From: Chloroflexota bacterium
GTDB taxonomy: Bacteria > Chloroflexota > Limnocylindria > Limnocylindrales > CSP1-4
Direction: 5' to 3'
NCBI GenBank assembly: GCA_005880805.1
Contig: VBFZ01000026.1
Location: 481-64,480 of the forward strand
Length of the DNA stretch: 64,000 bases
Shown: positions 5,341 to 17,842 of the stretch, piece after piece
Layout: every line of letters starts with the position of its first letter
Position numbering within the stretch: the first letter of the stretch is position 1
Program-made: the position numbers and the translations under genes
The notes under the pieces: model-generated
The model's input: only the letters and a program-made list of their open reading frames with translations
What the model was told of the DNA's origin: nothing
The model's database searches: none

Positions 5341-6705
5341 CTAGGGGCGAATGTTCTGGTTCAGCCGGAAGACGTTGTCCGGGTCCCACGTTCGCTTGAG
5401 GGCGCGAAGTCGTTCGTACTTCGCGTCGCCGTAGATCGCCCGGGCGACGTCCTCACCGGCGTCGCCCAGCGAGTTGGCATAGACGCCCGTCGTGCGATAC
5501 GGCTCGATGCCTTTCATCGCCGTGCGGGCCCAGCTCACGAAGTCCGCGTCGAGCGCTGGATCGTCCCACGTGCAGTCGACGCCGACCTCGAACGCCGCGC
5601 TTCGTCCTGTGTAAGCCGTGGCGTCCTCGGGCACGCTCGCGATCGCACCGCCGAGTGCGCCGATGAACGCGCTGCCGCCGGTCGGCATGGCGGACGCCTC
5701 GTCCACGAGGGCCCCGATCAGGCTTTCCGGCGCCGAGTCGACGTACACGCTCTTGGCATACACCCGGTGGCCCCACGCCATTTGCTGCGGCTGGACCCTG
5801 GCGACCACGGGCTTGCCGTAGGCAGTCAGCGGGGCGAGGTCTCGGTCCGCGTCCTCCGGCCGGCCGCAGTAGGTAACCGAGATCGCCGCCACCAGCTGGC
5901 CGGCGACCTCCGGCGGAAAGTCTTCGGCCGGGAGCGCGTGAAAGGTCGTGACGAGGCCGGAAATCTCCCACGGCGCGGTGGCTGCGAAGTCGCGGAAGAA
6001 CGCGAACAGCTCGGGCGCGGCGGAGAACGGATGGATCAGGAGCACCCGCGTAAGGTTCGGACCGACGGGATGCAAGTCGAATTCGAATCCGGTCGCGATC
6101 CCGAAGTTCCAGCCCGCACCGCGAAGGCCCCAGAACAGATCGGCGTTTTCCTCCGCGCTGGCTCGGACCTGGCGGCCATCAGCCGTCACGAGCTCGACCG
6201 CACGCAGGTTGTCGATGGTCAGGCCGAGCTTCCGCTGCAGCCGGCCAACGCCACCGCCCAGGGTCAGGCCCGCGACGCCCGTGTGGCTGACGACCCCCAC
6301 CGGGCAGGCAAGCCCGTAGGCCTGTGCCGCGTCGTCCAGCTCGCCGAGCAGCGCCCCGCCGTTCACCCGCGCCGTGCGCCGCTCAGGATCCACGGTGGCG
6401 CCGGTCAGACGCGAGACGTCGATGACGATGCCATCGTCACAGGTCGAGAGCCCCGGCAGGCTGTGTCCGCCACTTCGGACTGCGATCGGCAAGTCCTTCT
6501 CCCGGCCGAAGCGCACCGCGGACGCGATGTCCGCCACATCGATCGCGCGGGCGATGAGCGCCGGCCGCCGGTCGATCATCCCGTTCCACACGCGCCGGGC
6601 ATCGTCGTACCCATCGTCGGTGGGCAGGACGATCGGTCCCCGGAACGCATCACGGAACGACGCGAGCGCGGAGCCGTTGAGCGCGGGCGCGAGCTCTCCA
6701 ACCAT
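5341..6705 (-). CDS. FAD-linked oxidase, berberine-bridge-enzyme-like (PCMH/VAO fold) with C-terminal BBE-type domain
   Basis: FAD-binding PCMH motifs (AVRSGGHS, GVAGLTLGGGVG) and a C-terminal ...YERLRALKRTWDPDNVFRLNQNI; ATG 6705 with GAGGA upstream. Confidence 0.85.
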   Translation of the reverse strand: MVGELAPALNGSALASFRDAFRGPIVLPTDDGYDDARRVWNGMIDRRPALIARAIDVADIASAVRFGREKDLPIAVRSGGHSLPGLSTCDDGIVIDVSRLTGATVDPERRTARVNGGALLGELDDAAQAYGLACPVGVVSHTGVAGLTLGGGVGRLQRKLGLTIDNLRAVELVTADGRQVRASAEENADLFWGLRGAGWNFGIATGFEFDLHPVGPNLTRVLLIHPFSAAPELFAFFRDFAATAPWEISGLVTTFHALPAEDFPPEVAGQLVAAISVTYCGRPEDADRDLAPLTAYGKPVVARVQPQQMAWGHRVYAKSVYVDSAPESLIGALVDEASAMPTGGSAFIGALGGAIASVPEDATAYTGRSAAFEVGVDCTWDDPALDADFVSWARTAMKGIEPYRTTGVYANSLGDAGEDVARAIYGDAKYERLRALKRTWDPDNVFRLNQNIRP

Positions 6706-6846
6706 TGCCGTCCTCGCTGGCGACTCGGTGGCGGACGTGGGCCGTGCGGGCTACCGTTTTCCCTGACGCCGCGGGCGCGGGGAGCGTCGGTCGAAGGTAT
6801 CACCCATTCGCCAGGACGACGAGGGCTCGTTCTTCCCGTCGCTCGA

Positions 6847-6862
6847 GAGGCCGATCGGCCTC
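6847..6862. terminator. Perfect 16-bp palindrome GAGGCCGATCGGCCTC downstream of the GHKL-HExxH gene
   Basis: Read directly; lies 39 bp past the stop of 6901..8295 on the minus strand. Confidence 0.35.
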
Positions 6863-6900
6863 CGGCTGATCGAGTCCCGCAGGTTCGCGTCGGGCGCCGT

Positions 6901-8295
6901 CTATCTCGGCTTCGCCGCCGACTCCAGCTCCGGTTTGGGCTGACCCTCCCGCCCCACGGCGGTCGTCGCGACCGTCCCGACCTCGGAGGTCAGGGCGTCC
7001 TCGAACCCCGCGCTGACGTCCGGCGTCCCGCTGACGGCATGGGCGACCTCGTGGAGGAGCGTACCCGCGTACGCCTCGAGCGAAGCCAACTGGTCGCGCT
7101 TGATGACGATTCGGCCTTCCTTGGGTTCCCACACGCCGGCAGCCTCTGCATAACCGCTCGCGCCGAGGCGCATCGTCGTCGAGACGAGGATCTCGCGGAG
7201 CCTGGACGGCCGGCCGCCGCCGCGCAGGGCCAGGATCTCGTCCGTCCGGTCGAAGATCGCGCGTTCCTCGGGCGACAGGTCGGCCGGGTCGACGAACGAG
7301 AACTGGAAGCTCTCGTTCCACTGCGACTTGAAGCGATCGAGGTCGATGATCGGCGCACCGGTGATGTCGAGCGCCCCGGCGAGCTTGCGCCGGATGTTCT
7401 GCGGTACGACCACAACCCGATATCCGTCGTTGCGCGCCCGGTCGACGAAGTCGCGTGCGGCGTTGAGCTCCTGGGGCGTGAGGAAGATGACCCTGCCACT
7501 CGCGTTGAGGACCTGGCAGGCATGCACTCCAACGTCGACCAGCTGCACCTCGTCGTGCCAGCGTCCGGTCTCGAACTTCGAGAGATCCTCGGCCAGAGCG
7601 CTGGCCACCCCCTCCGAGGTCGCCGCCAGCACGATCGCCTTGACCCGGTCCGTGTAGGCGGTCCGGCCGACGTTCGATCGCTCGCGGTTGAGCGCCGCCC
7701 GCAGAGCCTTGGTGGGAGAGGTGATGTCGTAGCTGAAGAGGTAGTTGCGCTCCTCGGCGACGCGCAGGCCGTTGACGTAGATGCGGGCCGCCCATCTCGG
7801 CCGGGCGAGGACGACGCCGTAGGGGGTCTCCTCGAGGACCTCGTCGCCGGCGTAGTGGCGGAAGAGCGCCTTGGCCGCCCGGACGTCCTCGTCGGCGACG
7901 CCGGTCAGCTCGACGTCGATGTCGGTGAAGCCGTGCTTGGCCTGCTTCTCTGTGGTGATGTCGCCGAACCGGGATCGGATGCGGACACCGACCCCCCGGC
8001 GGTCGAATGTCGCCAGGGCATCCTTCAGCCCGACGCCGAACTTGCCGACGACCTTCTCCGGGTTGGCCAGCTTCTCGCGGTTCTCGTTCTGCGTGAGGTG
8101 CTCGTAGCGGAGCCCGCGTCCGAAGTCGCGAACGTGCCAGCGACCCCCGGCGTCCTTCGCGATTTCGGGATCCGCGCTGCCGGTCAACGCCGCCTCGTCG
8201 AGCGCGTTCGCGATCACCTCGCGGATCGCATGCGCGACCGTCCAGTTCTCCAGGACGCGCTCGATGTTGAGGTCGAACTCCCGGCGCGACGTCAC
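6901..8295 (-). CDS. GHKL-superfamily ATPase (MutL/MORC/Hsp90-type Bergerat fold) fused to a C-terminal HExxH zincin-like (SprT/Wss1-like or ImmA-like) domain
   Basis: N-box EVIANALDEA, G1 box VRDFGRGL and G2 box GKFGVGLKDA in the first ~130 aa. C terminus has ...MRLGASGYAE...GRIVIKRDQLASLEAYAGTLLHEVAHAVSG...FEDAL (HExxH plus a downstream E). GTG start at 8295; the gene stands alone with its own upstream repeat region. Confidence 0.7.
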   Translation of the reverse strand: MTSRREFDLNIERVLENWTVAHAIREVIANALDEAALTGSADPEIAKDAGGRWHVRDFGRGLRYEHLTQNENREKLANPEKVVGKFGVGLKDALATFDRRGVGVRIRSRFGDITTEKQAKHGFTDIDVELTGVADEDVRAAKALFRHYAGDEVLEETPYGVVLARPRWAARIYVNGLRVAEERNYLFSYDITSPTKALRAALNRERSNVGRTAYTDRVKAIVLAATSEGVASALAEDLSKFETGRWHDEVQLVDVGVHACQVLNASGRVIFLTPQELNAARDFVDRARNDGYRVVVVPQNIRRKLAGALDITGAPIIDLDRFKSQWNESFQFSFVDPADLSPEERAIFDRTDEILALRGGGRPSRLREILVSTTMRLGASGYAEAAGVWEPKEGRIVIKRDQLASLEAYAGTLLHEVAHAVSGTPDVSAGFEDALTSEVGTVATTAVGREGQPKPELESAAKPR

Positions 8296-8388: not shown

Positions 8389-8433
8389 GGGTTGGTCGCG
8401 CGCGGGCGTTGGTCGCGCGGGCGTTGGTCGCGC
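8389..8433. repeat. Three tandem 15-bp direct repeats (GGGTTGGTCGCGCGC / GGGCGTTGGTCGCGC x2)
   Basis: Read directly; located between the stop of the XRE-cupin regulator (8446) and the start of the GHKL-HExxH gene (8295). Confidence 0.6.
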
Positions 8434-8445
8434 GGGGCTGCCTCG

Positions 8446-9108
8446 TCAGAAGTTCGGCGGCGAGATTGCGGACACGATCTCCGCCTGCTCGTCGCCGAGC
8501 GCGCGGGCCTTGTGGGGCAGGCCCGAGTCGTAGTAGATCGAGTCGCCCTCATTGAGCTCGTACTCCACGTCGCCGACCTGGATCGCCACGCGCCCGCGCA
8601 GGACCAGCGCGCACTCCTCACCTTCGTGCGCCATCGCGGCGCTGTCGAGCCCGGGGAGGAGACGCACGATGATCATCTCGATCTTGTGGCGGACGTCGGG
8701 CGAAACCAGCTCATACGAAACCGGCGCGCCGGGTGGCCGGATGACCTTCCGTGACTCCCTGCGGACCACGAGGCCGTTCTCCTCCGGAGCGGTGAACAGG
8801 AGGAACACGGGCACCTCGAGCGCGGCCGCGATCGAGCGGAGGACCAGCAGCGAGGGATAGGCGAGCCCGCGCTCCACGCTGCTCAGGAAGCTTCGCGTGA
8901 TGCCCACGCGGCCGGCCAGGCCGGAGAGGGTCAGCCCGCGTTCTGTTCGGAGGGCCCGGATCCGGCGGCCGAGCTGGTCGTCGCGCTGGACGGCTGCTGC
9001 GCCCTGGCCTGCGGTCCCGCTCCGGCGTCCTGGACCGCGACGCGGACGCGCGGCAGGGATCGGTGTCGGTTCACCGGGAACGCGCCCCTGCCCCGTGGTC
9101 GCGGCCAT
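8446..9108 (-). CDS. XRE-family HTH transcriptional regulator with C-terminal cupin domain
   Basis: HTH (LRTERGLTLSGLAGRVGITRSFLSSVERG) plus cupin (GEECALVLRGRVAIQVGDVEYELNEGDSIYYDSGLPH). ATG at 9108 with AGGGGG upstream; the listed ORF 5' extension was rejected. Confidence 0.8.
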   Translation of the reverse strand: MAATTGQGRVPGEPTPIPAARPRRGPGRRSGTAGQGAAAVQRDDQLGRRIRALRTERGLTLSGLAGRVGITRSFLSSVERGLAYPSLLVLRSIAAALEVPVFLLFTAPEENGLVVRRESRKVIRPPGAPVSYELVSPDVRHKIEMIIVRLLPGLDSAAMAHEGEECALVLRGRVAIQVGDVEYELNEGDSIYYDSGLPHKARALGDEQAEIVSAISPPNF

Positions 9109-9136
9109 GAACGACCCCCTAGCCGGAGTGCCCGCC

Positions 9137-10168
9137 TCAGCGGACGGCGACGTCGACCGGCCGGGTCTCCGTGCCGTATTTGCGCGCGAAGTATGGCAGA
9201 ACCTCATCGCGGCAAACGCGCGCGACGATGTCCGGATCGGGGCTCATGTCCGCCCAGATGATGTGGTCGCAGCCGGCCTCGATGAACGCCTCGAACCGGC
9301 GAATGATCTCCTCGCCGGAGCTGGCCACGCAGAAGGCGGCCAGGAGCGCGTCGTCCTTGACGAGGAGCGCGCGCTGCTCGATGACGCGCGGATCCTGGAT
9401 GAACGTGTAGGCCTCCGGGATCAGCAGCCCGCCGTACACGCGCGCGCCTTCCAGCGCCTGCTCCATGCTCGGGTGGTAGGAGGTGCTGACCCAGGCGGAC
9501 CGGAAGCCCTCCGGCGTCCGCCGGCCGGCCTCGCTGGCCCCTCGCTCGAACGCCGGGGCGAGGACATCGTGATGGACGGATGGCGGCACGCCGACCGCCA
9601 CGTAACCATCCGCGAGCCGGCCCGCATTGGCCGCCATCTTCGGGCCACCGGCGGCGCAGATGATCGGGATGCGCCGGTCCGGCTTCTGATAGAGGTAGAA
9701 GAACGAGTCGAAGTAGCGGCCCTCGTGGCGGAAGTAATCCGGCTCCTCCCAGGCGCGGCGAATGAGGCCGATCGCCTCGACCAGCCGGTCGATCCGCTCG
9801 CGCAGCGGTGGCCAGACGCCTGTGGTCGTCTTCTCGTTCATCGCCTCCCCGGTCCCCACGCCGAGAGCGGTCCGGCCCGGGTACAGCAGCTCGAGGGTCG
9901 CCATCTCGATCGCCACGTCGATGGGCTGGTGCCGGACCCCGATCGGCGGGATGACCATCGGCCCGACCACCGCGCGCTCGGTGTTCGCCAGGAAGGCGGT
10001 GAGCGTCGCCCAGATGCCGGCGCTGTGGCCCGAGCTGTGCTGCCAGGGCAGGGTGTGGTCGCCCTCCCAGATGTGGGTGAAGCCCGCCTCCTCCAGGTCG
10101 CCGACGCGACGCACGTTGTCGCGCACGTCGTGGCAGAGGCACTCCGGGGAGATGCCGAAGGTGACCAT
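9137..10168 (-). CDS. Luciferase-like (LLM class) flavin/F420-dependent oxidoreductase
   Basis: MVTFGISPE...FTHIWEGDHT... is LLM-like. ATG 10168 overlaps the upstream stop as ATGA and has GGGAGGA upstream; the Arg-rich 99-aa extension of the listed ORF was rejected. Confidence 0.8.
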   Translation of the reverse strand: MVTFGISPECLCHDVRDNVRRVGDLEEAGFTHIWEGDHTLPWQHSSGHSAGIWATLTAFLANTERAVVGPMVIPPIGVRHQPIDVAIEMATLELLYPGRTALGVGTGEAMNEKTTTGVWPPLRERIDRLVEAIGLIRRAWEEPDYFRHEGRYFDSFFYLYQKPDRRIPIICAAGGPKMAANAGRLADGYVAVGVPPSVHHDVLAPAFERGASEAGRRTPEGFRSAWVSTSYHPSMEQALEGARVYGGLLIPEAYTFIQDPRVIEQRALLVKDDALLAAFCVASSGEEIIRRFEAFIEAGCDHIIWADMSPDPDIVARVCRDEVLPYFARKYGTETRPVDVAVR

Positions 10169-10587
10169 CACGTTCCTCCCACGGGCAGGCCGAGCTGCTG
10201 GAACAGCGACGCCGAGTCGTAGTAGACGATCTCGCGGGTGAACAGCTCGCCGTTGTGCTGGTAGACCGAGCAGGCCTTGATCCGGAACTGGCGGCCCGTC
10301 GGCGCGTGCCCGAGGAACTCGCCTTCGTGCGTCCCGATCAGGTCGTACTCCGCGACCACCGTCCGCTCGTCGCCCGCGACGCAGTGGCTGACCTCGATGT
10401 GGAGGTCCGGGAAGCCGCGGTAGAAGACGGCCATGAAGTCGCGCATCTCGGCCTTGCCCCGACACGGTTGCGGCACGGAGACGTCCTCGAAATAGACGTC
10501 GTCGGTGTAGTAGGCGAGGACGGCCTCGAGATCGCCCCGACTCAGGTCGGCGATCTCGTCAAGGACAGCTTGGCGAGGGTCCTGCAT
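10168..10587 (-). CDS. SnoaL-like / NTF2-fold protein (ketosteroid-isomerase-like)
   Basis: 139 aa with an NTF2-like pattern (LAYYTDDVYFEDVS...EVSHCVAGDERTVVAEYDL); GGAGG RBS. Confidence 0.65.
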   Translation of the reverse strand: MQDPRQAVLDEIADLSRGDLEAVLAYYTDDVYFEDVSVPQPCRGKAEMRDFMAVFYRGFPDLHIEVSHCVAGDERTVVAEYDLIGTHEGEFLGHAPTGRQFRIKACSVYQHNGELFTREIVYYDSASLFQQLGLPVGGT

Positions 10588-11512
10588 AGGGCACAGCCTC
10601 CGGCAATCCGAGCAGGCGCACCGCGGCGCCTCCGAAGAAGCTCTGCTCGTCGCTCTCGGTGATGAAGGGCTCCATGTCGTGGCGCTCCGTGTACTCGCGG
10701 ACTCGCCCGAAGAACTCCTTCCCCGTGTCGAACGGCACGTACGGGTAGTCCGTGCCCCACAGGAAACGGTTGAAGACGCCGAGCTTCTTGGCCCATGTCC
10801 AGATCTGGGCGACTCGCCAGAGGGGAGCGGACTCGGCCCAGAACGCGAAGTCGCCGTAGATGTGCTCGAACTTGGCCATGAAGTGCATCGTCTCTTCGGC
10901 CCAGGCGAAGCCGACGTGGCCGATGACGAGCTTGAGATTCGGGAAGTCGACCATCACGTCCTCGAGGTAGAGGGGATAGTCGTACGCGAGCATCTTGCCC
11001 TTCGGGAACATGCTCCATCCGGTGTGCGTGATGATCGGCACGCCCATCGCCTCGGCGGCCTCGAAGAGCGGCCAGATCCGCCGGTCGTTGAGAGCCACGT
11101 AGTTGTAGGAGGGCAGCATCTTGAGGCCCGTCAGACCTTGCTCCTTGATGCCCCGCTCGAAGCGGCGGACCTCGGCGTTGCCACCGATGGGGTTGGCGGT
11201 AAAGAAGCCGTACAGACGGTCCGGCCAGCGCTGGACGAGCGACTGGGCGTAGGCGCCGTTCTCGGGGTCATACGCATCCCAGGGCACGTAGCCGACTCCC
11301 AGCACGAACGCCCTGTCGATGCCGGCGGCATCCATGTCGGCGATCAGGCGTTCACCCGGGACGCAGAAGTCCTCGGGCTGCCACGGCTTGCCGGTGTGCC
11401 AGCAATCCTGGCCGCGGAACATGTTCACGTAGAACTCGCCGAGCTTGCGTGGGAAGTCCACGTCGAACCGCTGCATGTGCGTGTGGGTGTTGATCACGAG
11501 TCCGTCGGCCAT
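10559..11512 (-). CDS. Amidohydrolase-2 family metal-dependent hydrolase (TIM-barrel, COG2159-like)
   Basis: INTHTHM... and GHVGFAW motifs, C-terminal FLWGTDYPY; GGAGGAAG RBS. Confidence 0.8.
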   Translation of the reverse strand: MADGLVINTHTHMQRFDVDFPRKLGEFYVNMFRGQDCWHTGKPWQPEDFCVPGERLIADMDAAGIDRAFVLGVGYVPWDAYDPENGAYAQSLVQRWPDRLYGFFTANPIGGNAEVRRFERGIKEQGLTGLKMLPSYNYVALNDRRIWPLFEAAEAMGVPIITHTGWSMFPKGKMLAYDYPLYLEDVMVDFPNLKLVIGHVGFAWAEETMHFMAKFEHIYGDFAFWAESAPLWRVAQIWTWAKKLGVFNRFLWGTDYPYVPFDTGKEFFGRVREYTERHDMEPFITESDEQSFFGGAAVRLLGLPEAVPYAGPSPSCP

Positions 11513-11549
11513 GGCTTCCTCCGTGTGCTGGTGACTCCTTCGTTCGTGC

Positions 11550-13205
11550 TCAGGCGTCCGGGCCGCCCCGGCGGACCACCTGCCCCGCTCGTGCCGCGCT
11601 GTCGACCACGCCGTCGCGGACGACCGGCGAGCCGTTGACGAGGACGTGCTCGATGCCGGCCGGGGCGGCGCTCGGCTGCCGGTAGGTCGTCCGGTCGTCG
11701 ACCGTCCGCGGGTCGAAGACGACGACGTCCGCGAAGTTGCCCTCCCGAAGGGTGCCCCGCTTGCGCAGCCCCACCCGCTGGGCGGGCAGTGACGTCGACT
11801 TGCGGACTGCCTCCTCGAGGCTGAACAGGCGGCGCTCGCGGACGAAGTGGCCGAGGACGCGGGGGAACGTCCCGTAGGCTGCGGGGTGGGGCTTGCCGCG
11901 GCCGGTCAGGATCGCGTCGCTCTCGGCCGCCCCCAGCGGGTGCCGGAGCAGCTTTTCCAGCCCGGCCTCCTCCTCGAGCTCGCCCGACACGCCGAAGTAG
12001 AGGGCCATCGCATGGCCGTTCTCCTCGAGCACGAGGTCGGCGGCGACGTCGAACGGGTGGACGCCCCTCGCGTCGCCGATCTCCGCCAGGGAGCGACCCT
12101 CCAGCGGCTTGTTGCGCTCGCTCTCGACCCACATGATCGAAACGTTCTGCCAGCCGGTCGCCTCGACGAGGTTGTGCGGCCAACCGCCTGGCGTCCAGCA
12201 CGGCCAGCCAGGCACGTCCTCCTCGATGGAACGGCGGATCCGCGCACGCACTTCGTTGTCGCGGAGTCGCTCCAGGAGCCCGTCGACGCCGCCGGCGAGC
12301 GCCCAGGGCGGGAAGATCGCGAGCAGCGTTGTGTTCGCAGCAATGTACGGGATGACATCGAAGCCGCTGTCGACGCCCCGCTCGCGGGCTCCCTCGTGCA
12401 GCTCGATGATCGCGTCGATCTTCGGCCAGTTCGGCCGCCCGAACGCCTCGATGTGCGAGTGCTGCGCGGGTACGCCGTTGACCTCTCCGACACGGATCAC
12501 CTCCTTCGTCGCGGGAAGGAGCGTCTCGCTCGAACCACGGATGTGGCTGGCGTACAGCGCGCCGAACGGCTCGAGCTCGGCGGCCAGGTCTTCGATTTCC
12601 TCGGGCGGAGCGAAGATCCCCGGCGCATACAGCAGCCCGCTCGAGAGGCCCCAGGCCCCTTCCTCGAGCGCCTTGCGCAGCTGGTCGCGCATGCGGGTGC
12701 GCTCGTCGGGCGTGAGCTGGCGGCCCTCGAACCCGACCTCGTGGATTCGCAGCGCGCCATGGGCCACCAGCGGGACGACGTTGAACATCGTCCCGTGCTG
12801 GTCGAGGTAGTCCAGGTATTCGCCAAAGCCGGTCCACCCTGAGGGCAAATCGCCCGCGCGCAGGAAGGTCGTGTAGCTCTCGAGCTGCGCCCGCGTTGCC
12901 GGGTTGATCGGGGCGGGAGAGTACCCGCAGTTCCCCGTGACGAGGGTGGTGATGCCCTGCCCGGCGAACGGCGCAAGGGTGTCACCGTGCGTCGAGTCCG
13001 CCAGGACGAAGTCGCTGTGGGAGTGGATGTCGATGAAGCCGGGCGCGACGACTCGATCGGTGGCATCGATCTCGAGCTCGCCGCGCCCGTCACCGAGGCG
13101 GCCCACGGCCGCGATCTTCCCGTCCGAGATGCCAAGGTCGGCCGGGAACCAGGGGTTTCCGGTTCCGTCGACGACCCGGCCGTTTCTGATGACGACGTCG
13201 AACAT
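11550..13205 (-). CDS. D-aminoacylase (N-acyl-D-amino-acid deacylase) family amidohydrolase
   Basis: MFDVVIRNGRVVDGTGNPWF...GFIDIHSHSD...VTGNCGYSP motifs typical of the D-aminoacylase family. Confidence 0.8.
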   Translation of the reverse strand: MFDVVIRNGRVVDGTGNPWFPADLGISDGKIAAVGRLGDGRGELEIDATDRVVAPGFIDIHSHSDFVLADSTHGDTLAPFAGQGITTLVTGNCGYSPAPINPATRAQLESYTTFLRAGDLPSGWTGFGEYLDYLDQHGTMFNVVPLVAHGALRIHEVGFEGRQLTPDERTRMRDQLRKALEEGAWGLSSGLLYAPGIFAPPEEIEDLAAELEPFGALYASHIRGSSETLLPATKEVIRVGEVNGVPAQHSHIEAFGRPNWPKIDAIIELHEGARERGVDSGFDVIPYIAANTTLLAIFPPWALAGGVDGLLERLRDNEVRARIRRSIEEDVPGWPCWTPGGWPHNLVEATGWQNVSIMWVESERNKPLEGRSLAEIGDARGVHPFDVAADLVLEENGHAMALYFGVSGELEEEAGLEKLLRHPLGAAESDAILTGRGKPHPAAYGTFPRVLGHFVRERRLFSLEEAVRKSTSLPAQRVGLRKRGTLREGNFADVVVFDPRTVDDRTTYRQPSAAPAGIEHVLVNGSPVVRDGVVDSAARAGQVVRRGGPDA

Positions 13206-13277: not shown

Positions 13278-14744
13278 TCAGAACCCGGGGTTGGCCTTCA
13301 GGAAGGCGTCGATCTCGGCCTGGGCCTTCTTGTGTTCGGCCGCCGGATCGGAGCCATGGAACGCGGCCGAAACGGCAGCCTCCACGACGTCCGAGATCTT
13401 CTGGTACGCGGCACGCGTGCCGTACCGATTGCCCTTGAACTCCTGCTGCTTGAAGGTGACCTCGACGGCCGGCTTGTCGGCAGCCGGAATCGAGGCGTCG
13501 GTGTACGGCGCGGTGTACGAGGGGTAGCCACTCTCGTCGGCGGCCTCGAACGTGTGGAGCTCCTCGCGGCGCGTCAGCAGCCCGAGCTGTGTCGCGGCGT
13601 TGGAGTAGTGCTTGATGAGGTCGAGCGCGGCCTCCTTGTAGGGGCTGGTCTTGGGGATGCCGAAGCACTCGCCGACGAACTGGCCGCCCGACTGGGGCAG
13701 GCTGCCGCCGTAGCCGGGGATGATCGAGACCTCGACCGGATCGCTGCCCAGCGCCGACAGGTTCGGGTCGCGGGCCTCGTACCAGATGTGCTGGTAGTCG
13801 ATGATCATCGCGGCCTTGCCGCCCAGGAAGACCTTCTTCGCCTCGACGTCATAGATGCCCCACGGCGACTCGATGACGTCCTTGGGCATGGTCGGCAGGA
13901 GCTCGATCATGTCCTTCGTGGCCTTGATCGCGATGGGGTCGTCGAACTTCACCTCGCCGTTGGGTCCGTACAGGTCACCGCCATTGAGGTGGTACCACAC
14001 GCACCACTTGGGGAACAGGTAGAGCGGCGCCCAGCCGTCCACGTAGCCGTACGTGTCGCCCGACCGGAACTTCTTCGCCGCCGCCTGGAAGTCGGCGTAC
14101 GTCTTCGGGATCGCGACGCCGGCGTCCGCGAACATCTTCTTGTTGCAGTACAGGACGTAGGTGTAGACGTTGCTCGGCAGGCCGTACCACTTGCCGCTGG
14201 CCGACTTGCCGGCCTCGATGGCGACCTTCAGCATGCCGCTCTCGTCGACGGTATGGCCGAGGTCGGCGAGTGGCGTCAGGTACTTCTCGTAAAGGTCGAC
14301 CCACGCGCGCCAGAGATACGCCACGTCCCAGCTCTCGCCGCCGCTTTCGAACGCGGGAGTCAGCTTCAGCGGGAGCGGCCCGAAGGCCTCGCGGGTGAAT
14401 TCCACCTTCACGCCGGTCCGCTTCTCCCAGTCGGGCGTGACCATCGCGTAGAAGCCGGTGTGGTTCGCGAGCAGGACCTTGAGCGGCCGCGTGAGGTTGA
14501 ATGAAGGCGCGGTCGACGCGGCAGCACTGGGGGATGGGCTCGCGGCGGCAGAGGCCGCCGTGGATGCGGCAGGCGATGGACTGGCCGCCCCGGAACACGC
14601 GGCGAGCGCGGCGCCGATGCCGGCGAAGGCGCTGCCCTGCAGGAACCGCCGGCGGGTGATGTCCCTCGTCAGCATGTCGTTGAGCTGGCTCGGCCCTTGT
14701 TTGTGCTCGTCCATGACTTCCTCCTCGATCACTGGCGTATCCAT
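13278..14744 (-). CDS. ABC transporter substrate-binding lipoprotein (family-1, sugar-type) with Tat signal
   Basis: TRRRFLQGSAFAGIGAALAACSG (twin-arginine motif + lipobox). An alternative start exists 30 nt downstream (14714), created by a duplicated RBS+ATG. Confidence 0.85.
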   Translation of the reverse strand: MDTPVIEEEVMDEHKQGPSQLNDMLTRDITRRRFLQGSAFAGIGAALAACSGAASPSPAASTAASAAASPSPSAAASTAPSFNLTRPLKVLLANHTGFYAMVTPDWEKRTGVKVEFTREAFGPLPLKLTPAFESGGESWDVAYLWRAWVDLYEKYLTPLADLGHTVDESGMLKVAIEAGKSASGKWYGLPSNVYTYVLYCNKKMFADAGVAIPKTYADFQAAAKKFRSGDTYGYVDGWAPLYLFPKWCVWYHLNGGDLYGPNGEVKFDDPIAIKATKDMIELLPTMPKDVIESPWGIYDVEAKKVFLGGKAAMIIDYQHIWYEARDPNLSALGSDPVEVSIIPGYGGSLPQSGGQFVGECFGIPKTSPYKEAALDLIKHYSNAATQLGLLTRREELHTFEAADESGYPSYTAPYTDASIPAADKPAVEVTFKQQEFKGNRYGTRAAYQKISDVVEAAVSAAFHGSDPAAEHKKAQAEIDAFLKANPGF

Positions 14745-14784
14745 GACTTCCTCCTCCGAAGTCGGTGTTGCCGTCCGTGGCCGC

Positions 14785-15786
14785 CTACTTGACGGCCCCT
14801 TCGCCGAGTCCGCGGATGAGATAGCGCTGCATCAGGAGGGCGATCGTCAGGACCGGCAGCGAGGCGATCAGCCCGGCCATCGACAGCTGGGGTTCGATTC
14901 GGTTGATGGGATCCATGAGGTTCACGATCGCGGGCGCGAGCATCGGGGTGCTGCCCACGTAGAGCACCTTGGAGACCAGCAGGTCGTTCCAGGACAGTAC
15001 GAACCCGAACACCGCGGCGGTCACCACGCTGGGCACCGTCAGCGGCAGGACGACCCGGCGCAGCGCCTGCAGCCGGCTGGCGCCGTCGATTCGCGCGGCG
15101 TGCTCGAGCTCGGGCTCGACGCCCTCGAACGTCCCGATCAGGATCCACGTGACCAGCGGGACGGTGAGCGCGATGTGACCGATCGCCATCCCGGGCAGCG
15201 TGTCGATCAGGTGAAGGCCCTTGAAGATCGCGACGAGCGGCACGAGGATCGCGACGCCCGGCAGCATGTAGGCGATCATCACGGCGGTGTACGTCGCGCT
15301 TCGGGCGGGAAACCGAAGCCGGGCAATCGCGTAGGCCCCCAGGGTCCCGAGCAGCGTCGTGACAATCGCGGCTGTTGTTGAGACCAGCAGGCTGTTCCGC
15401 AGTCCTTCCTCGAAGTACGGGATCCGCATCAGCTGGTCGAAGGCGACCGTCGTCGGGCTCGGCGGGATCACGTGCGGTCCGGTGAGCAGGTCGACGCGCC
15501 GCTGGAAGGCCCCGAGCACCACGACGAACCCGAACGGCACGACGATCACGACCAGGACGCCGATGGCCAGGATCCAGGCCACGACGCGCGCGCCCAGGTC
15601 CTGGCGGAGCGCGTTGAGGCCCTGCCACAGGAGCGCGAGGCCGGCCAGCGTGGCCACGGCCCAGGCCCAGAACGGAAAGCCGAACGGTCGCGCGATCTGC
15701 AGCAGCTCGAGGAGCGCGGCGGCGAGGACGAGGCCGCCGCCGGCGACGGCGGCTGCTCGAGCCAGGCGCGGATCGGACGCGTTCAC
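14785..15786 (-). CDS. ABC transporter permease (MalG-like, carbohydrate type)
   Basis: EAA-type loop IDGASRLQALRRVVLPL; GTG 15786 overlaps the stop of the upstream permease (GTGA). The listed 658-aa ORF is a read-through artefact. Confidence 0.75.
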   Translation of the reverse strand: MNASDPRLARAAAVAGGGLVLAAALLELLQIARPFGFPFWAWAVATLAGLALLWQGLNALRQDLGARVVAWILAIGVLVVIVVPFGFVVVLGAFQRRVDLLTGPHVIPPSPTTVAFDQLMRIPYFEEGLRNSLLVSTTAAIVTTLLGTLGAYAIARLRFPARSATYTAVMIAYMLPGVAILVPLVAIFKGLHLIDTLPGMAIGHIALTVPLVTWILIGTFEGVEPELEHAARIDGASRLQALRRVVLPLTVPSVVTAAVFGFVLSWNDLLVSKVLYVGSTPMLAPAIVNLMDPINRIEPQLSMAGLIASLPVLTIALLMQRYLIRGLGEGAVK

Positions 15787-16721
15787 GACAGGATCGACCT
15801 CGCTCGACCCCTGGTGAGCAGCAGGGCGAGCACGACCACAAAGCCCGTGACGATGTACGCCAGGACGGCCCCGTACCCGAAGTCGGTCTGCTCGAAGGTC
15901 GTCTTGAACGTGTAGAAGTAGACGTTGTAGGTGGAGTAGCGGCCGGGTCCGCCGCCTGTGAGCGCGAAGATCAGGTCGAAGAGCTGGACCGTGATCAGGA
16001 CCTGAATGATGATCGCGGCCACGATCGTCGGCCGCAGGAAGGGCAGCACCACGTAACGGAAGCGCCGCCAGCGACTCGCCCCATCGATGCGCGCCGCCTG
16101 GATCGTCTCGTTGGGGAGGTACTGCAACGCGACGAGGAACATGAGCGCGAGGAGAGGCATGGTCTTCCAGATGTGGATGGCCGTGAGCATGTAGAGCGTC
16201 CCGGGCACGCCGCCCAGGAAGATCGGCGACTGGTCGACGAGCCCGGCGTTCACGAGCCACTGGCCCAGCAGTCCCCGCCGGGAGTCGAGGAACCACTGGA
16301 ACATCGCGGCCACGACCACCGGCGGTAGCGCCCAGGGGATGAGCAGAGCGGCGCGGACGATGCGCCGGCCGGGGAATCGCTCGTTCAGGACGAGGGCGAC
16401 GCCGAGGCCGACCAGGACGCCCAGCACGGCCGCCGGGATCACGTACATCAGGGTCTGGACGACGGCCTGGCTGAAGATCGGGTCGGACGCGATCCTGGCC
16501 CAGTTCGCAAGACCCACGAACGCGCCGAGCTGGCCGGGCGCGGCACCCCGCCCCGACACCGTGAGAAGCAACGAGTAGAGGACCGGGTAGCCGACCAGTC
16601 CGACGAACAGCAGCGCCGTCGGCACCAGGAACAGCAGCGCGTAGGCCTGGCTCTCGCGGCGGATCGACAGCCGGCTGAACCGGTTGCCCATCGTCCGCGC
16701 GGTGGCGACGCCGGACGCCAT
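15783..16721 (-). CDS. ABC transporter permease (MalF-like, carbohydrate type)
   Basis: ARIDGASRWRRFRYVVLPFLRP; ATG overlaps the ATPase stop (ATGA). Confidence 0.85.
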   Translation of the reverse strand: MASGVATARTMGNRFSRLSIRRESQAYALLFLVPTALLFVGLVGYPVLYSLLLTVSGRGAAPGQLGAFVGLANWARIASDPIFSQAVVQTLMYVIPAAVLGVLVGLGVALVLNERFPGRRIVRAALLIPWALPPVVVAAMFQWFLDSRRGLLGQWLVNAGLVDQSPIFLGGVPGTLYMLTAIHIWKTMPLLALMFLVALQYLPNETIQAARIDGASRWRRFRYVVLPFLRPTIVAAIIIQVLITVQLFDLIFALTGGGPGRYSTYNVYFYTFKTTFEQTDFGYGAVLAYIVTGFVVVLALLLTRGRARSILS

Positions 16722-17842
16722 CAGACAGCCACGTCCCAGGAACGGACGGTGGCTGGCTCATCCTCGACCACGATCCGCTCGCCCGAGGTGGCGTCGAAGA
16801 AGTGCAGCAGCGACCGGACGAAGGTCACACCGACCTCGTCGCCGACCCCGACGACGTGCTCCCCCGGGACGCGGGCGCGCAGGCTCACGTCGCCGACCGA
16901 GACCGTCGCGTAGAGGTCCGGCGCCACGACCTCGGTGAGGGTCACCTTGCCAACCATCGGTGCGCCACGCGACGAGGAGATCGTCACTCCTTCGGGGCGG
17001 ACGCCGACCACGACCGGCCCGGCCGGCAGACCCCGCCGGCCCGCGAGATCGACCCACACCGGGCCGGAATCGAAGCGCAGTCGCCCCTCTTCCTCGCGGA
17101 TCTCGCCGCGCACGAAGCTCATTGGCAGCCGTCCAACGAAGGACGCCACGAACCGGTTCGCGGGCCGTCGGTAGATCGCCGTCGGCGTGTCGTACTGCTG
17201 GACCGAGCCGCGCGCCATCAGCACGACGCGGTCACTCATGGCCTCCGCGTCGTCCTGATCGTGGGTGACATAGATGAAGGTCGCGCCGAGGCGCTGGTGG
17301 ATGCGCTTGAGCTCCTCGCGCGTCGTCGCTCGCAGGTTCGCGTCGAGGTTGCTGATCGGCTCGTCGAGCAGGAAGACCTTGGGGCTGCGGACGATCGCGC
17401 GGCCGAGCGCGACCCGCTGACGCTCGCCGCCGCTCAGCGCGCGGGGCTGGCGATCCAGGAGGCCCCGGATGCCGAGCATCTCGGCCACCTCTTCGACATG
17501 CCGGTAGCGCTCCTGCCGGCCGAGGCCCCGCAGCATCAGCGGGAAGGCGATGTTGTCCCGCGCGTTCATGTTCGGATAGAGCGCGTAAGACTGGAACACC
17601 ATGGCGACGTCCCGGCGCTCCGGGGTGACGTTGGTGATGTCCGCGCCATCCATGAGGATCCGGCCGGACGTCACCTCCTCGATCCCTGCCAGCAGTTTGA
17701 GGATCGTGCTCTTGCCCGATCCGGACGGCCCGAGGATGCAGGTGAACAGCCCGTCCTCGAACGTCAACGACGTCTCCTGCACGGCGTCGGCCGCCAGGCC
17801 CGGGTAGCGCTTGACGACGCGATCGAGCCGGACCTCAGCCAC
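16721..17842 (-). CDS. ABC transporter ATP-binding protein (MalK/UgpC-like, with C-terminal TOBE-like domain)
   Basis: Walker A GPSGSGKST, signature [14 protein letters not shown], Walker B FLLDEP; GTG start with GGGAGGGG upstream. Confidence 0.9.
   Translation of the reverse strand: MAEVRLDRVVKRYPGLAADAVQETSLTFEDGLFTCILGPSGSGKSTILKLLAGIEEVTSGRILMDGADITNVTPERRDVAMVFQSYALYPNMNARDNIAFPLMLRGLGRQERYRHVEEVAEMLGIRGLLDRQPRALSGGERQRVALGRAIVRSPKVFLLDEPISNLDANLRATTREELKRIHQRLGATFIYVTHDQDDAEAMSDRVVLMARGSVQQYDTPTAIYRRPANRFVASFVGRLPMSFVRGEIREEEGRLRFDSGPVWVDLAGRRGLPAGPVVVGVRPEGVTISSSRGAPMVGKVTLTEVVAPDLYATVSVGDVSLRARVPGEHVVGVGDEVGVTFVRSLLHFFDATSGERIVVEDEPATVRSWDVAV

Follow-up and report, generated by a model that had tools for sequence, protein, structure and literature searches.

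We describe a gene on the minus strand, at positions 6901-8295, of a 64,000-nucleotide stretch of DNA from a Chloroflexota bacterium (contig VBFZ01000026.1; the whole stretch is referred to here as the window). On balance, we favor the view that this gene belongs to an uncharacterized family of ATP-gated, DNA-associated proteases that remove proteins from DNA, and that the window copy itself is probably ATPase-defective. The protein appears to join an N-terminal GHKL ATPase module to a C-terminal zincin, and in several groups of bacteria and archaea its homologues are encoded next to Mre11-Rad50.

The open reading frame (ORF) is complete, encodes 464 amino acids (aa) and begins with GTG. Because its N-terminus (TSRREFDLNIERVLENW) agrees with the family consensus, we take this start codon to be correct. 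The GHKL (Bergerat-fold) ATP-binding domain covers residues ~11-149 (7849-8265; all features of the gene are on the minus strand) and lacks one conserved segment, considered below. The GHKL superfamily motifs I (ExxxNAxD, which has the catalytic Glu and the Mg-binding Asn), II (DxGxG) and III (GxxGxG) are all present, as the N box E26-VIANALD-E34 (8194-8220), the G1 box D57-F-G-R-G61 (8113-8127) and the G2 box G84-KFGVGLK-D92 (8020-8046). A transducer-like region of beta-sheet and helix, marked by the invariant blocks RIYVNG...AEE and NRER..VGR.AY..R, follows at residues ~150-225 (7621-7848), and then a middle helical bundle with a small alpha/beta unit at residues ~226-318 (7342-7620). The C-terminal domain, a predicted zincin of the minigluzincin/Wss1/SprT-like kind, occupies residues ~319-451 (6943-7341), with the putative metal-binding and catalytic motif H415-E-V-A-H419 ... 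D426 ... E432 at 7000-7053. Across 101 aligned family members, with identities down to 34%, N30, D33 and E34 of the N box, D57, G59 and G61 of the G1 box, G84, F86, G87, G89, K91 and D92 of the G2 box, and H415, E416, H419, D426 and E432 of the zincin are invariant. Since these residues are retained at identities this low, the alignment indicates that the GHKL and HExxH motifs are more than chance. All of the motifs quoted in the original prediction are present, and a coincidental HExxH is argued against by this invariance together with the zincin fold described below.

Pfam searches with the single window sequence gave only sub-threshold matches, to HATPase_c (E 0.013), HATPase_c_3 (E 0.014), the putative metallopeptidase DUF6782 (E 0.028) and SprT-like (PF10263, E 0.096). 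The score to HATPase_c_3, the MORC family model, was 15.9 bits against a Pfam gathering cut-off of 25; 23 of 24 aligned members also fell below this cut-off (best E 1.5e-4), while one member found in the representative search, P0122, scored 26.4 bits. For SprT-like the score was 13.0 bits, against a gathering score of 25.6, and WLM (PF08325, E 0.13) and Peptidase_M78 (E 0.19) were each seen in one of 24 members. The matches to HATPase_c_3 and SprT-like that had been expected were therefore seen, but below threshold. No DNA_mis_repair, Toprim or Hsp90 family domains were detected in the window protein by Pfam, and NCBIfam gave a weak match to a sacsin-type ATP-binding model. Searches of PDB sequences with the whole protein, as a single sequence and as a profile, returned marginal GyrB matches that cover motifs I-II only; a profile of the C-terminal region found no match among PDB sequences. 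Sequence alone is unable to place the zincin.

Two observations weigh against the proposed architecture. Judged by profile scores, membership fails for MORC, SprT-like and WLM alike. In addition, the spacing typical of Wss1 and SprT is HExxHx5H, in which the third zinc ligand is a His six residues past the second His, whereas the family has HExxH-x6-D-x5-E (H419-AVSGTP-D426 in the window protein) and no His at the third-ligand position. Its third metal ligand would be D426 or E432, which lie 7 and 13 residues past the second His.

Because every Pfam match was below threshold, structural confirmation of the motif reading was needed. The 101-sequence alignment was used to build an AlphaFold2 model, which was confident (mean pLDDT 84.9, pTM 0.75) and contains the Bergerat alpha/beta sandwich fold. 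When the model was compared with the PDB by Foldseek, full-length Hsp90 was the top match (E ~1e-7, over the N-terminal and middle domains), followed by ParE/GyrB and MutL, and the GHL-class fold was aligned over >200 residues. The C-terminal domain has a zincin fold with the HExxH motif on the active-site helix, and its closest structures are Wss1, minigluzincins and Spartan. The ImmA/IrrE (PprI) M78 peptidases and ArdC had far weaker structural scores than Wss1; an ImmA-like kinship of the C-terminal domain, which had been raised as a possibility, is not borne out by these scores or by the single Peptidase_M78 match noted above. The middle region, residues ~226-318, was modeled confidently (pLDDT mostly >85), though no specific fold match was identified for it. 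At the level of predicted fold, then, the fusion of a GHKL ATPase to a Wss1/SprT-like zincin is supported, as originally proposed.

Members of the family are numerous: the window protein matches more than 4,700 clusters built at 90% identity, and in a 50%-identity library 1,534 representatives match at E <=1e-3 and 343 at E <=1e-30. In contigs representing one genome per species, at least 306 species encode a member. An exact copy of the window protein was not found in the contig index. The locus and context counts given below cover the best 80 of these at least 306 species loci, which are 49-92% identical to the window protein. They include bacteria of the Chloroflexota, Actinomycetota, Acidobacteriota, Bacillota, Pseudomonadota, Bacteroidota, Verrucomicrobiota and Omnitrophota, and archaea of the Bathyarchaeia, DPANN archaea, Methanosarcinales and Nitrosopumilus. 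The nearest relative, in a metagenome-assembled genome of Candidatus Limnocylindrales (L001), is 92% identical in amino acids and 96% in nucleotides, with synteny kept. A patchy distribution with identities of at least 50% across domains of life implies horizontal transfer, and by these sequence comparisons the family is patchy, horizontally transferred and strongly constrained. A collection of 50,697 phage records held no homologue, and only 12 plasmid records had a match. One plasmid match, H12, was considered as an alternative architecture and rejected, being a C-terminal-only 115-aa fragment among insertion sequence elements. The Citrobacter braakii plasmid pF217-3 encodes, amid insertion sequence elements, a 115-aa "hypothetical protein" (L081, 5995-6342) that matches the zincin region alone (residues 368-453) at 38% identity and is apparently a truncated family fragment on a conjugative plasmid. 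Longer members of the family carry TPR, Sel1, BspA-type LRR, FGE-sulfatase or Bles03 modules C-terminal to the zincin, and one member has a fused FtsK-gamma DNA-binding domain.

Homologues are annotated as "ATP-binding protein" at NCBI and as hypothetical at JGI. All of those listed, including one 92% identical to the window protein, have a precomputed match to PF25856 (MPN635_N), and the window protein itself is very likely a member by sequence. The MPN635_N label derives from the N-terminal domain of an uncharacterized, non-essential Mycoplasma pneumoniae protein; it is an N-terminal label without implied function, and apparently leaves the zincin domain uncovered. In database terms the gene is thus a member of an existing, uncharacterized family. 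Literature searches on GHKL with zincin or metallopeptidase, PF25856, MPN635, and HerA-NurA-Mre11-Rad50 with metalloprotease found no description of the architecture. The statement that the ATPase-zincin combination is not a described family therefore holds with respect to published papers, yet the N-terminus falls within a Pfam family that already exists. Both the GHKL-transducer-Wss1-like-zincin architecture and its recurrent membership in Mre11-Rad50(-HerA-NurA) operons appear to be undescribed.

All-against-all clustering of ORFs from the 80 loci revealed no universal conserved neighbor; partners are specific to subsets of the family. The survey of homologues suggested in the original prediction did uncover recurrent Mre11-Rad50, Endonuc_Holl and defense-type genes within such subsets. 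A tblastn census found an SbcD/Mre11-like gene within 6 kb of the target in 11 of the 80 species loci and an SbcC/Rad50-like gene in 9, usually directly upstream in the same orientation, the genes overlapping or being only a few bases apart. Among sampled metagenome contigs, the target lies directly after SbcD/Mre11-SbcC/Rad50 in 5 of 11. The SbcCD-linked loci are both archaeal (Aenigmarchaeota/Nanoarchaeota L012, L014 and L032; Nitrosopumilus L060 and L079; Micrarchaeota L058) and bacterial (Solirubrobacterales L063 and L070; Anaerolineae L027; Acidobacteriaceae L057), and L093 has Metallophos and AAA_23 genes upstream of the target. In L070, SbcC and the target are separated by a small HIRAN-domain gene (5506-5940); HIRAN is a domain that binds DNA 3' ends and damaged DNA.

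Members of one clade share 61-63% identity with the window protein, and there the target is the last gene of a five-gene block in which stop and start codons overlap or nearly abut: a gene of ~590 aa, SbcD, SbcC, a gene of ~320 aa, and the target. The ~590-aa product is HerA (E 4.6e-138 to PDB 7f6d_B) and the ~320-aa product is NurA (E 2.4e-20 to 7f6d_H). This HerA - SbcD/Mre11 - SbcC/Rad50 - NurA - GHKL-zincin cassette occupies 1648-9410 in L084, with equivalents in L086 and L087. Downstream of it, L084 and L087 have a DISARM-like/type IIG set and L086 has unrelated genes. The cassette persists while the downstream genes change, which argues that in this clade the target belongs to an end-resection cassette. 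PADLOC identified DrmD and REase_MTase_IIG/DrmMI in the downstream set of L084 and L087, which comprises an SNF2/DrmD gene, a 1,550-aa methylase-nuclease and a giant DEAD+MZB helicase. Upstream of the cassette are a ScoMcrA-like HNH type IV restriction gene in L084-L086 and a Peptidase_M78/HTH pair in L087.

To catalog other neighbors, the two ORFs closest to the target on either side were scanned in bulk against Pfam. The families found were AAA_23/SMC_N (7 upstream, 4 downstream), AAA_15 (6), Metallophos (4), Endonuc_Holl (5 + 4), AAA_21 (5 + 3), OLD TOPRIM (3) and RmuC (2 + 3), with further helicases, MmeI/Eco57I methylases, PD-(D/E)XK nucleases and PemK toxins. UvrD-PDDEXK, restriction-modification, DISARM-like, OLD/AAA_15 and toxin-antitoxin genes were also found near the target. 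A second nuclease that recurs beside the target, in addition to Mre11-Rad50, is Endonuc_Holl, a Holliday-junction-resolvase-related PD-(D/E)xK family; its genes, of ~169 aa, occur as tandem pairs that adjoin the target in L044, L045, L049, L050, L051 and L056 (Acidobacteriota and Nitrosopumilus).

The modules and partners of the family have well-established activities elsewhere. The GHKL-transducer modules of MutL, MORC, type II topoisomerases and Hsp90 are ATP-driven dimerizing clamps, and those of GyrB/ParE and topoisomerase VI-B likewise dimerize when they bind ATP; the proteases Wss1 and SPRTN depend on DNA for activation and break down proteins that are crosslinked to it; and Mre11-Rad50/SbcCD cleaves and processes protein-blocked DNA ends. 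The operon evidence, taken with these clamp, crosslink-protease and end-processing roles, leads us to infer an ATP-gated, DNA-associated protease. The motifs, folds, distribution and gene linkage are shown, and from them DNA binding, proteolysis, ATP gating and the nature of the substrate are proposed. The N-terminal GHKL and transducer module would serve, under the control of ATP, as a clamp or switch on DNA or on a DNA-bound complex, and would position or license the C-terminal Wss1/SprT-like zinc metalloprotease. The protease would degrade proteins stuck on DNA, either covalent DNA-protein crosslinks or end-blocking proteins, of host or invader, and once these had been removed, nucleases such as Mre11-Rad50 and HerA-NurA could proceed. 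A more specific form of this model, in which the family is the prokaryotic counterpart of Wss1/SPRTN, a DNA-clamping metalloprotease gated by ATP and working with Mre11-Rad50 (and HerA-NurA) in genome maintenance, is offered as a tentative suggestion. Since members often lie in defense islands, the protease may also strip protective proteins from invading DNA.

The copy in the window departs from its relatives in the ATP-binding domain. Compared with the 96%-identical L001 orthologue, it has one clean 54-bp in-frame deletion at ~7917-7919 (L001 6378-6431), the junction falling between residues 126 and 127 (7915-7920, minus strand). The 18 residues lost are TTLHAVIDEPSDPGMTGT in L001 and TTLHAVIxEPSDPxMTGT in the closest relatives, and the deleted T, L, H, A, G and T are 98-100% conserved in 100 aligned homologues. 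The loss is unique to the window: none of the 100 other aligned homologues shows it, and the segment is kept at all checked loci of the 80. It was overlooked in the original prediction. The deleted GT most likely corresponds to GHKL motif IV, and TLHA to the strand before it, since GT lies ~55 residues after the G2 box and a hydrophobic strand follows; this assignment is positional only, as alignments to GHKL proteins in the PDB reach just motifs I-II. The window copy would thus be missing motif IV, in which a beta strand bearing GT contacts the nucleotide. In the AlphaFold2 model, residues 117-122, just before the junction, are the sole low-confidence stretch of the GHKL domain. Because 18 conserved residues of the ATP-binding domain are gone, the sequence suggests that the window copy is probably defective as an ATPase; it may be in decay, or may be a variant freed from regulation. 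The remainder of the gene is intact and its dN/dS relative to L001 is 0.225, so that the deletion is either recent or tolerated.

The window copy could instead be a non-functional relic, a pseudogene in the making that is kept only because the deletion is recent. We regard this as a serious possibility, if somewhat short of an even one. It would fit the unique loss of a segment with six almost invariant positions and the lack of partner genes, and the adjacent RibD_C gene has likewise been cut to a 34-codon remnant in the window's lineage. However, the frame is intact over 464 codons and every other invariant residue is retained, and the dN/dS of 0.225 also speaks against a relic. The modeled fold is also confident around the junction except at residues 117-122, and the protease domain, which the deletion spares, could work free of ATP control.

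As noted in the original prediction, the window gene stands alone: no Mre11-Rad50 or defense genes were found near it. In the window, in L001 and in L091/P0003, the target lies between genes for an XRE-cupin regulator and an FAD/BBE oxidase, in surroundings of luciferase-like monooxygenase, SnoaL, amidohydrolase and ABC-transporter genes. In the window, the XRE-cupin regulator, the luciferase-like monooxygenase, a SnoaL-like protein and two amidohydrolases are encoded upstream of the target and co-oriented with it (8446-13205, minus strand), followed by ORFs resembling ABC-transporter components (13278-16761, minus strand). Conservation with L091 extends from the SBP_bac_1 solute-binding gene as far as the regulator. 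This upstream block probably forms a catabolic operon that the XRE-cupin protein controls and that has nothing to do with the target. A pairing of the ImmA/IrrE type with the upstream XRE-cupin gene was rejected, as the synteny is confined to the window's lineage, beside the luciferase-like/SnoaL/amidohydrolase block. HTH families are not among the recurrent neighbors of homologues, and the family differs from ImmA/IrrE M78 peptidases in having no conserved XRE-repressor partner, the XRE-cupin gene being specific to that lineage.

Two sequence features flanking the gene had been singled out, and both are real. A 15-nucleotide tandem repeat (CGCGCGACCAACGCC-like) occurs three times at 8391-8438, in the gap that separates the end of the XRE-cupin gene from the start codon of the target. 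The copy number is three in the window, two in L001 and zero in L091, which marks it as a hypervariable simple repeat and not a conserved element, and a regulatory role was rejected on these counts. The second, a perfect 16-nucleotide palindrome (GAGGCCGATCGGCCTC) at 6847-6862, encodes ERPIGL. Perfect palindromes of this length number 3 in the window and 2.9 in shuffled sequence, so that its frequency is that of chance; it was rejected as a terminator for this reason and because it has no T-run and lies inside a coding remnant. Within the 195-bp "intergenic" tract 3' of the target, which separates it from the FAD/BBE oxidase gene, ~6830-6931 on the plus strand preserves only the final ~34 codons of a RibD_C gene, 85% identical to a 198-aa gene that is intact in L091, and the palindrome falls within this remnant. 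No promoter-like or terminator-like sites were found around the gene, by a scan that is of little value at 69% GC.

For the family as a whole, the principal alternative is an anti-phage or anti-plasmid immune effector, in which GHKL would be an NTP-dependent switch triggered by an invader cue and the zincin the effector. It would cleave a host target, causing abortive infection, or an invader's terminal or DNA-end-protecting protein, and the longer members would have added a sensor. We consider this possible but rather unlikely. The patchy distribution with identity of at least 50% across domains of life is what such a system might show, and neighbors are enriched in restriction-modification, type IV restriction and DISARM-like genes (DrmD, DrmMI, DEAD+MZB) as well as OLD/AAA_15/AAA_21, PemK and DUF499/DUF1156. 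A DUF499 (+HEPN_Swt1)/DUF1156 methylase-type set is convergent to the target in L089 (2370-9353), L094 (8529-14700) and L095 (3101-9272). These DUF499/DUF1156 genes adjoin the target in two unrelated samples, where the family members are only distantly related, which suggests a recurring defense-island neighborhood. In L096 (6144-9261) the target lies between two 227-aa Ala_racemase_N (YggS-like) genes in a housekeeping region (ileS, lspA, DivIVA); the arrangement looks like an insertion with duplication of the target-site gene. The variable C-terminal TPR, Sel1, LRR and FGE-sulfatase fusions are typical of sensors in conflict systems, and the overall design, GHKL-S5 with a C-terminal effector, is shared with the paraMORC families (Iyer, Abhiman and Aravind 2008, PMC2292703). 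On the other hand, neither the window protein nor the L084 homologue matched any family in PADLOC-DB v2, the 50,697 phage records lack the gene and only 12 plasmid records match it, its conservation is unusually high for a defense gene, and in the window's lineage it sits in stable synteny among metabolic genes. An immune role overlaps with protein removal from DNA and does not exclude it.

Two further alternatives are less likely. The protein could be an Hsp90-like chaperone-protease for quality control, whose GHKL and middle regions bind clients that the zincin degrades, with DNA uninvolved; we think this quite improbable. Least probable is that the C-terminal HExxH domain is a non-peptidase enzyme. 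It might be a metal-dependent nuclease, in which case the protein would resemble the GHKL-nucleases MutL and paraMORC3, or some other hydrolase or an oxygenase on a zincin-like scaffold (YbeY-like or ChlH-like).

Returning to an ATP-gated, DNA-associated protease, the family can be set apart from each of the systems it resembles. It differs from Wss1/WLM and SprT/SPRTN in its sub-threshold profile scores and its candidate third ligand, both given above, and in domain composition: Wss1 and SPRTN carry ubiquitin-, SUMO- or p97-binding modules or Zn-ribbon/BR DNA-binding modules, whereas the zincin of this family is fused to a GHKL ATPase. It is also prokaryotic, unlike the eukaryotic Wss1 and SPRTN. 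The C-terminal domains of the GHL class (MutL, GyrB/ParE, topoisomerase II, topoisomerase VI-B and Hsp90) differ from that of the family, and the segment with the GT motif is gone in the window copy. MORC and paraMORC1-5 proteins have GHKL-S5 modules followed by a C-terminal nuclease, a TIR domain or an unknown effector; the paper describing them mentions no peptidase and no link to Mre11 or SbcC (PMC2292703). Their effectors are RE-fold nuclease, TIR or HxH domains, whereas the effector proposed here is a zincin peptidase, and the paraMORC partners are an SF2 helicase, a methylase and an endonuclease, whereas the recurrent partner of this family is Mre11-Rad50(-HerA-NurA).

The locus in the window has no partner genes and its ATP site is damaged, which tempers its own weight, but it is also a natural deletion allele of that site. 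For the family, a protease would join the effectors known on GHKL-S5 engines, which so far are nucleases and TIR domains. If the immune role is correct, the family would be a new defense module, single-gene or Mre11-Rad50-associated, that is absent from current defense catalogs. DNA-protein crosslinks are universal lesions, and dedicated crosslink proteases (Wss1, SPRTN) are established in eukaryotes. To our knowledge, the proteolytic crosslink route in bacteria and archaea is poorly defined. The family is a concrete candidate for this missing prokaryotic route, a Wss1-like protease with a MutL/MORC-type clamp that is repeatedly the last gene in Mre11-Rad50(-HerA-NurA) operons. If it is indeed the counterpart of Wss1/SPRTN, then proteolytic crosslink processing would be an ancient function that Bacteria and Archaea share laterally, and the eukaryotic enzymes might have a common ancestry with it.

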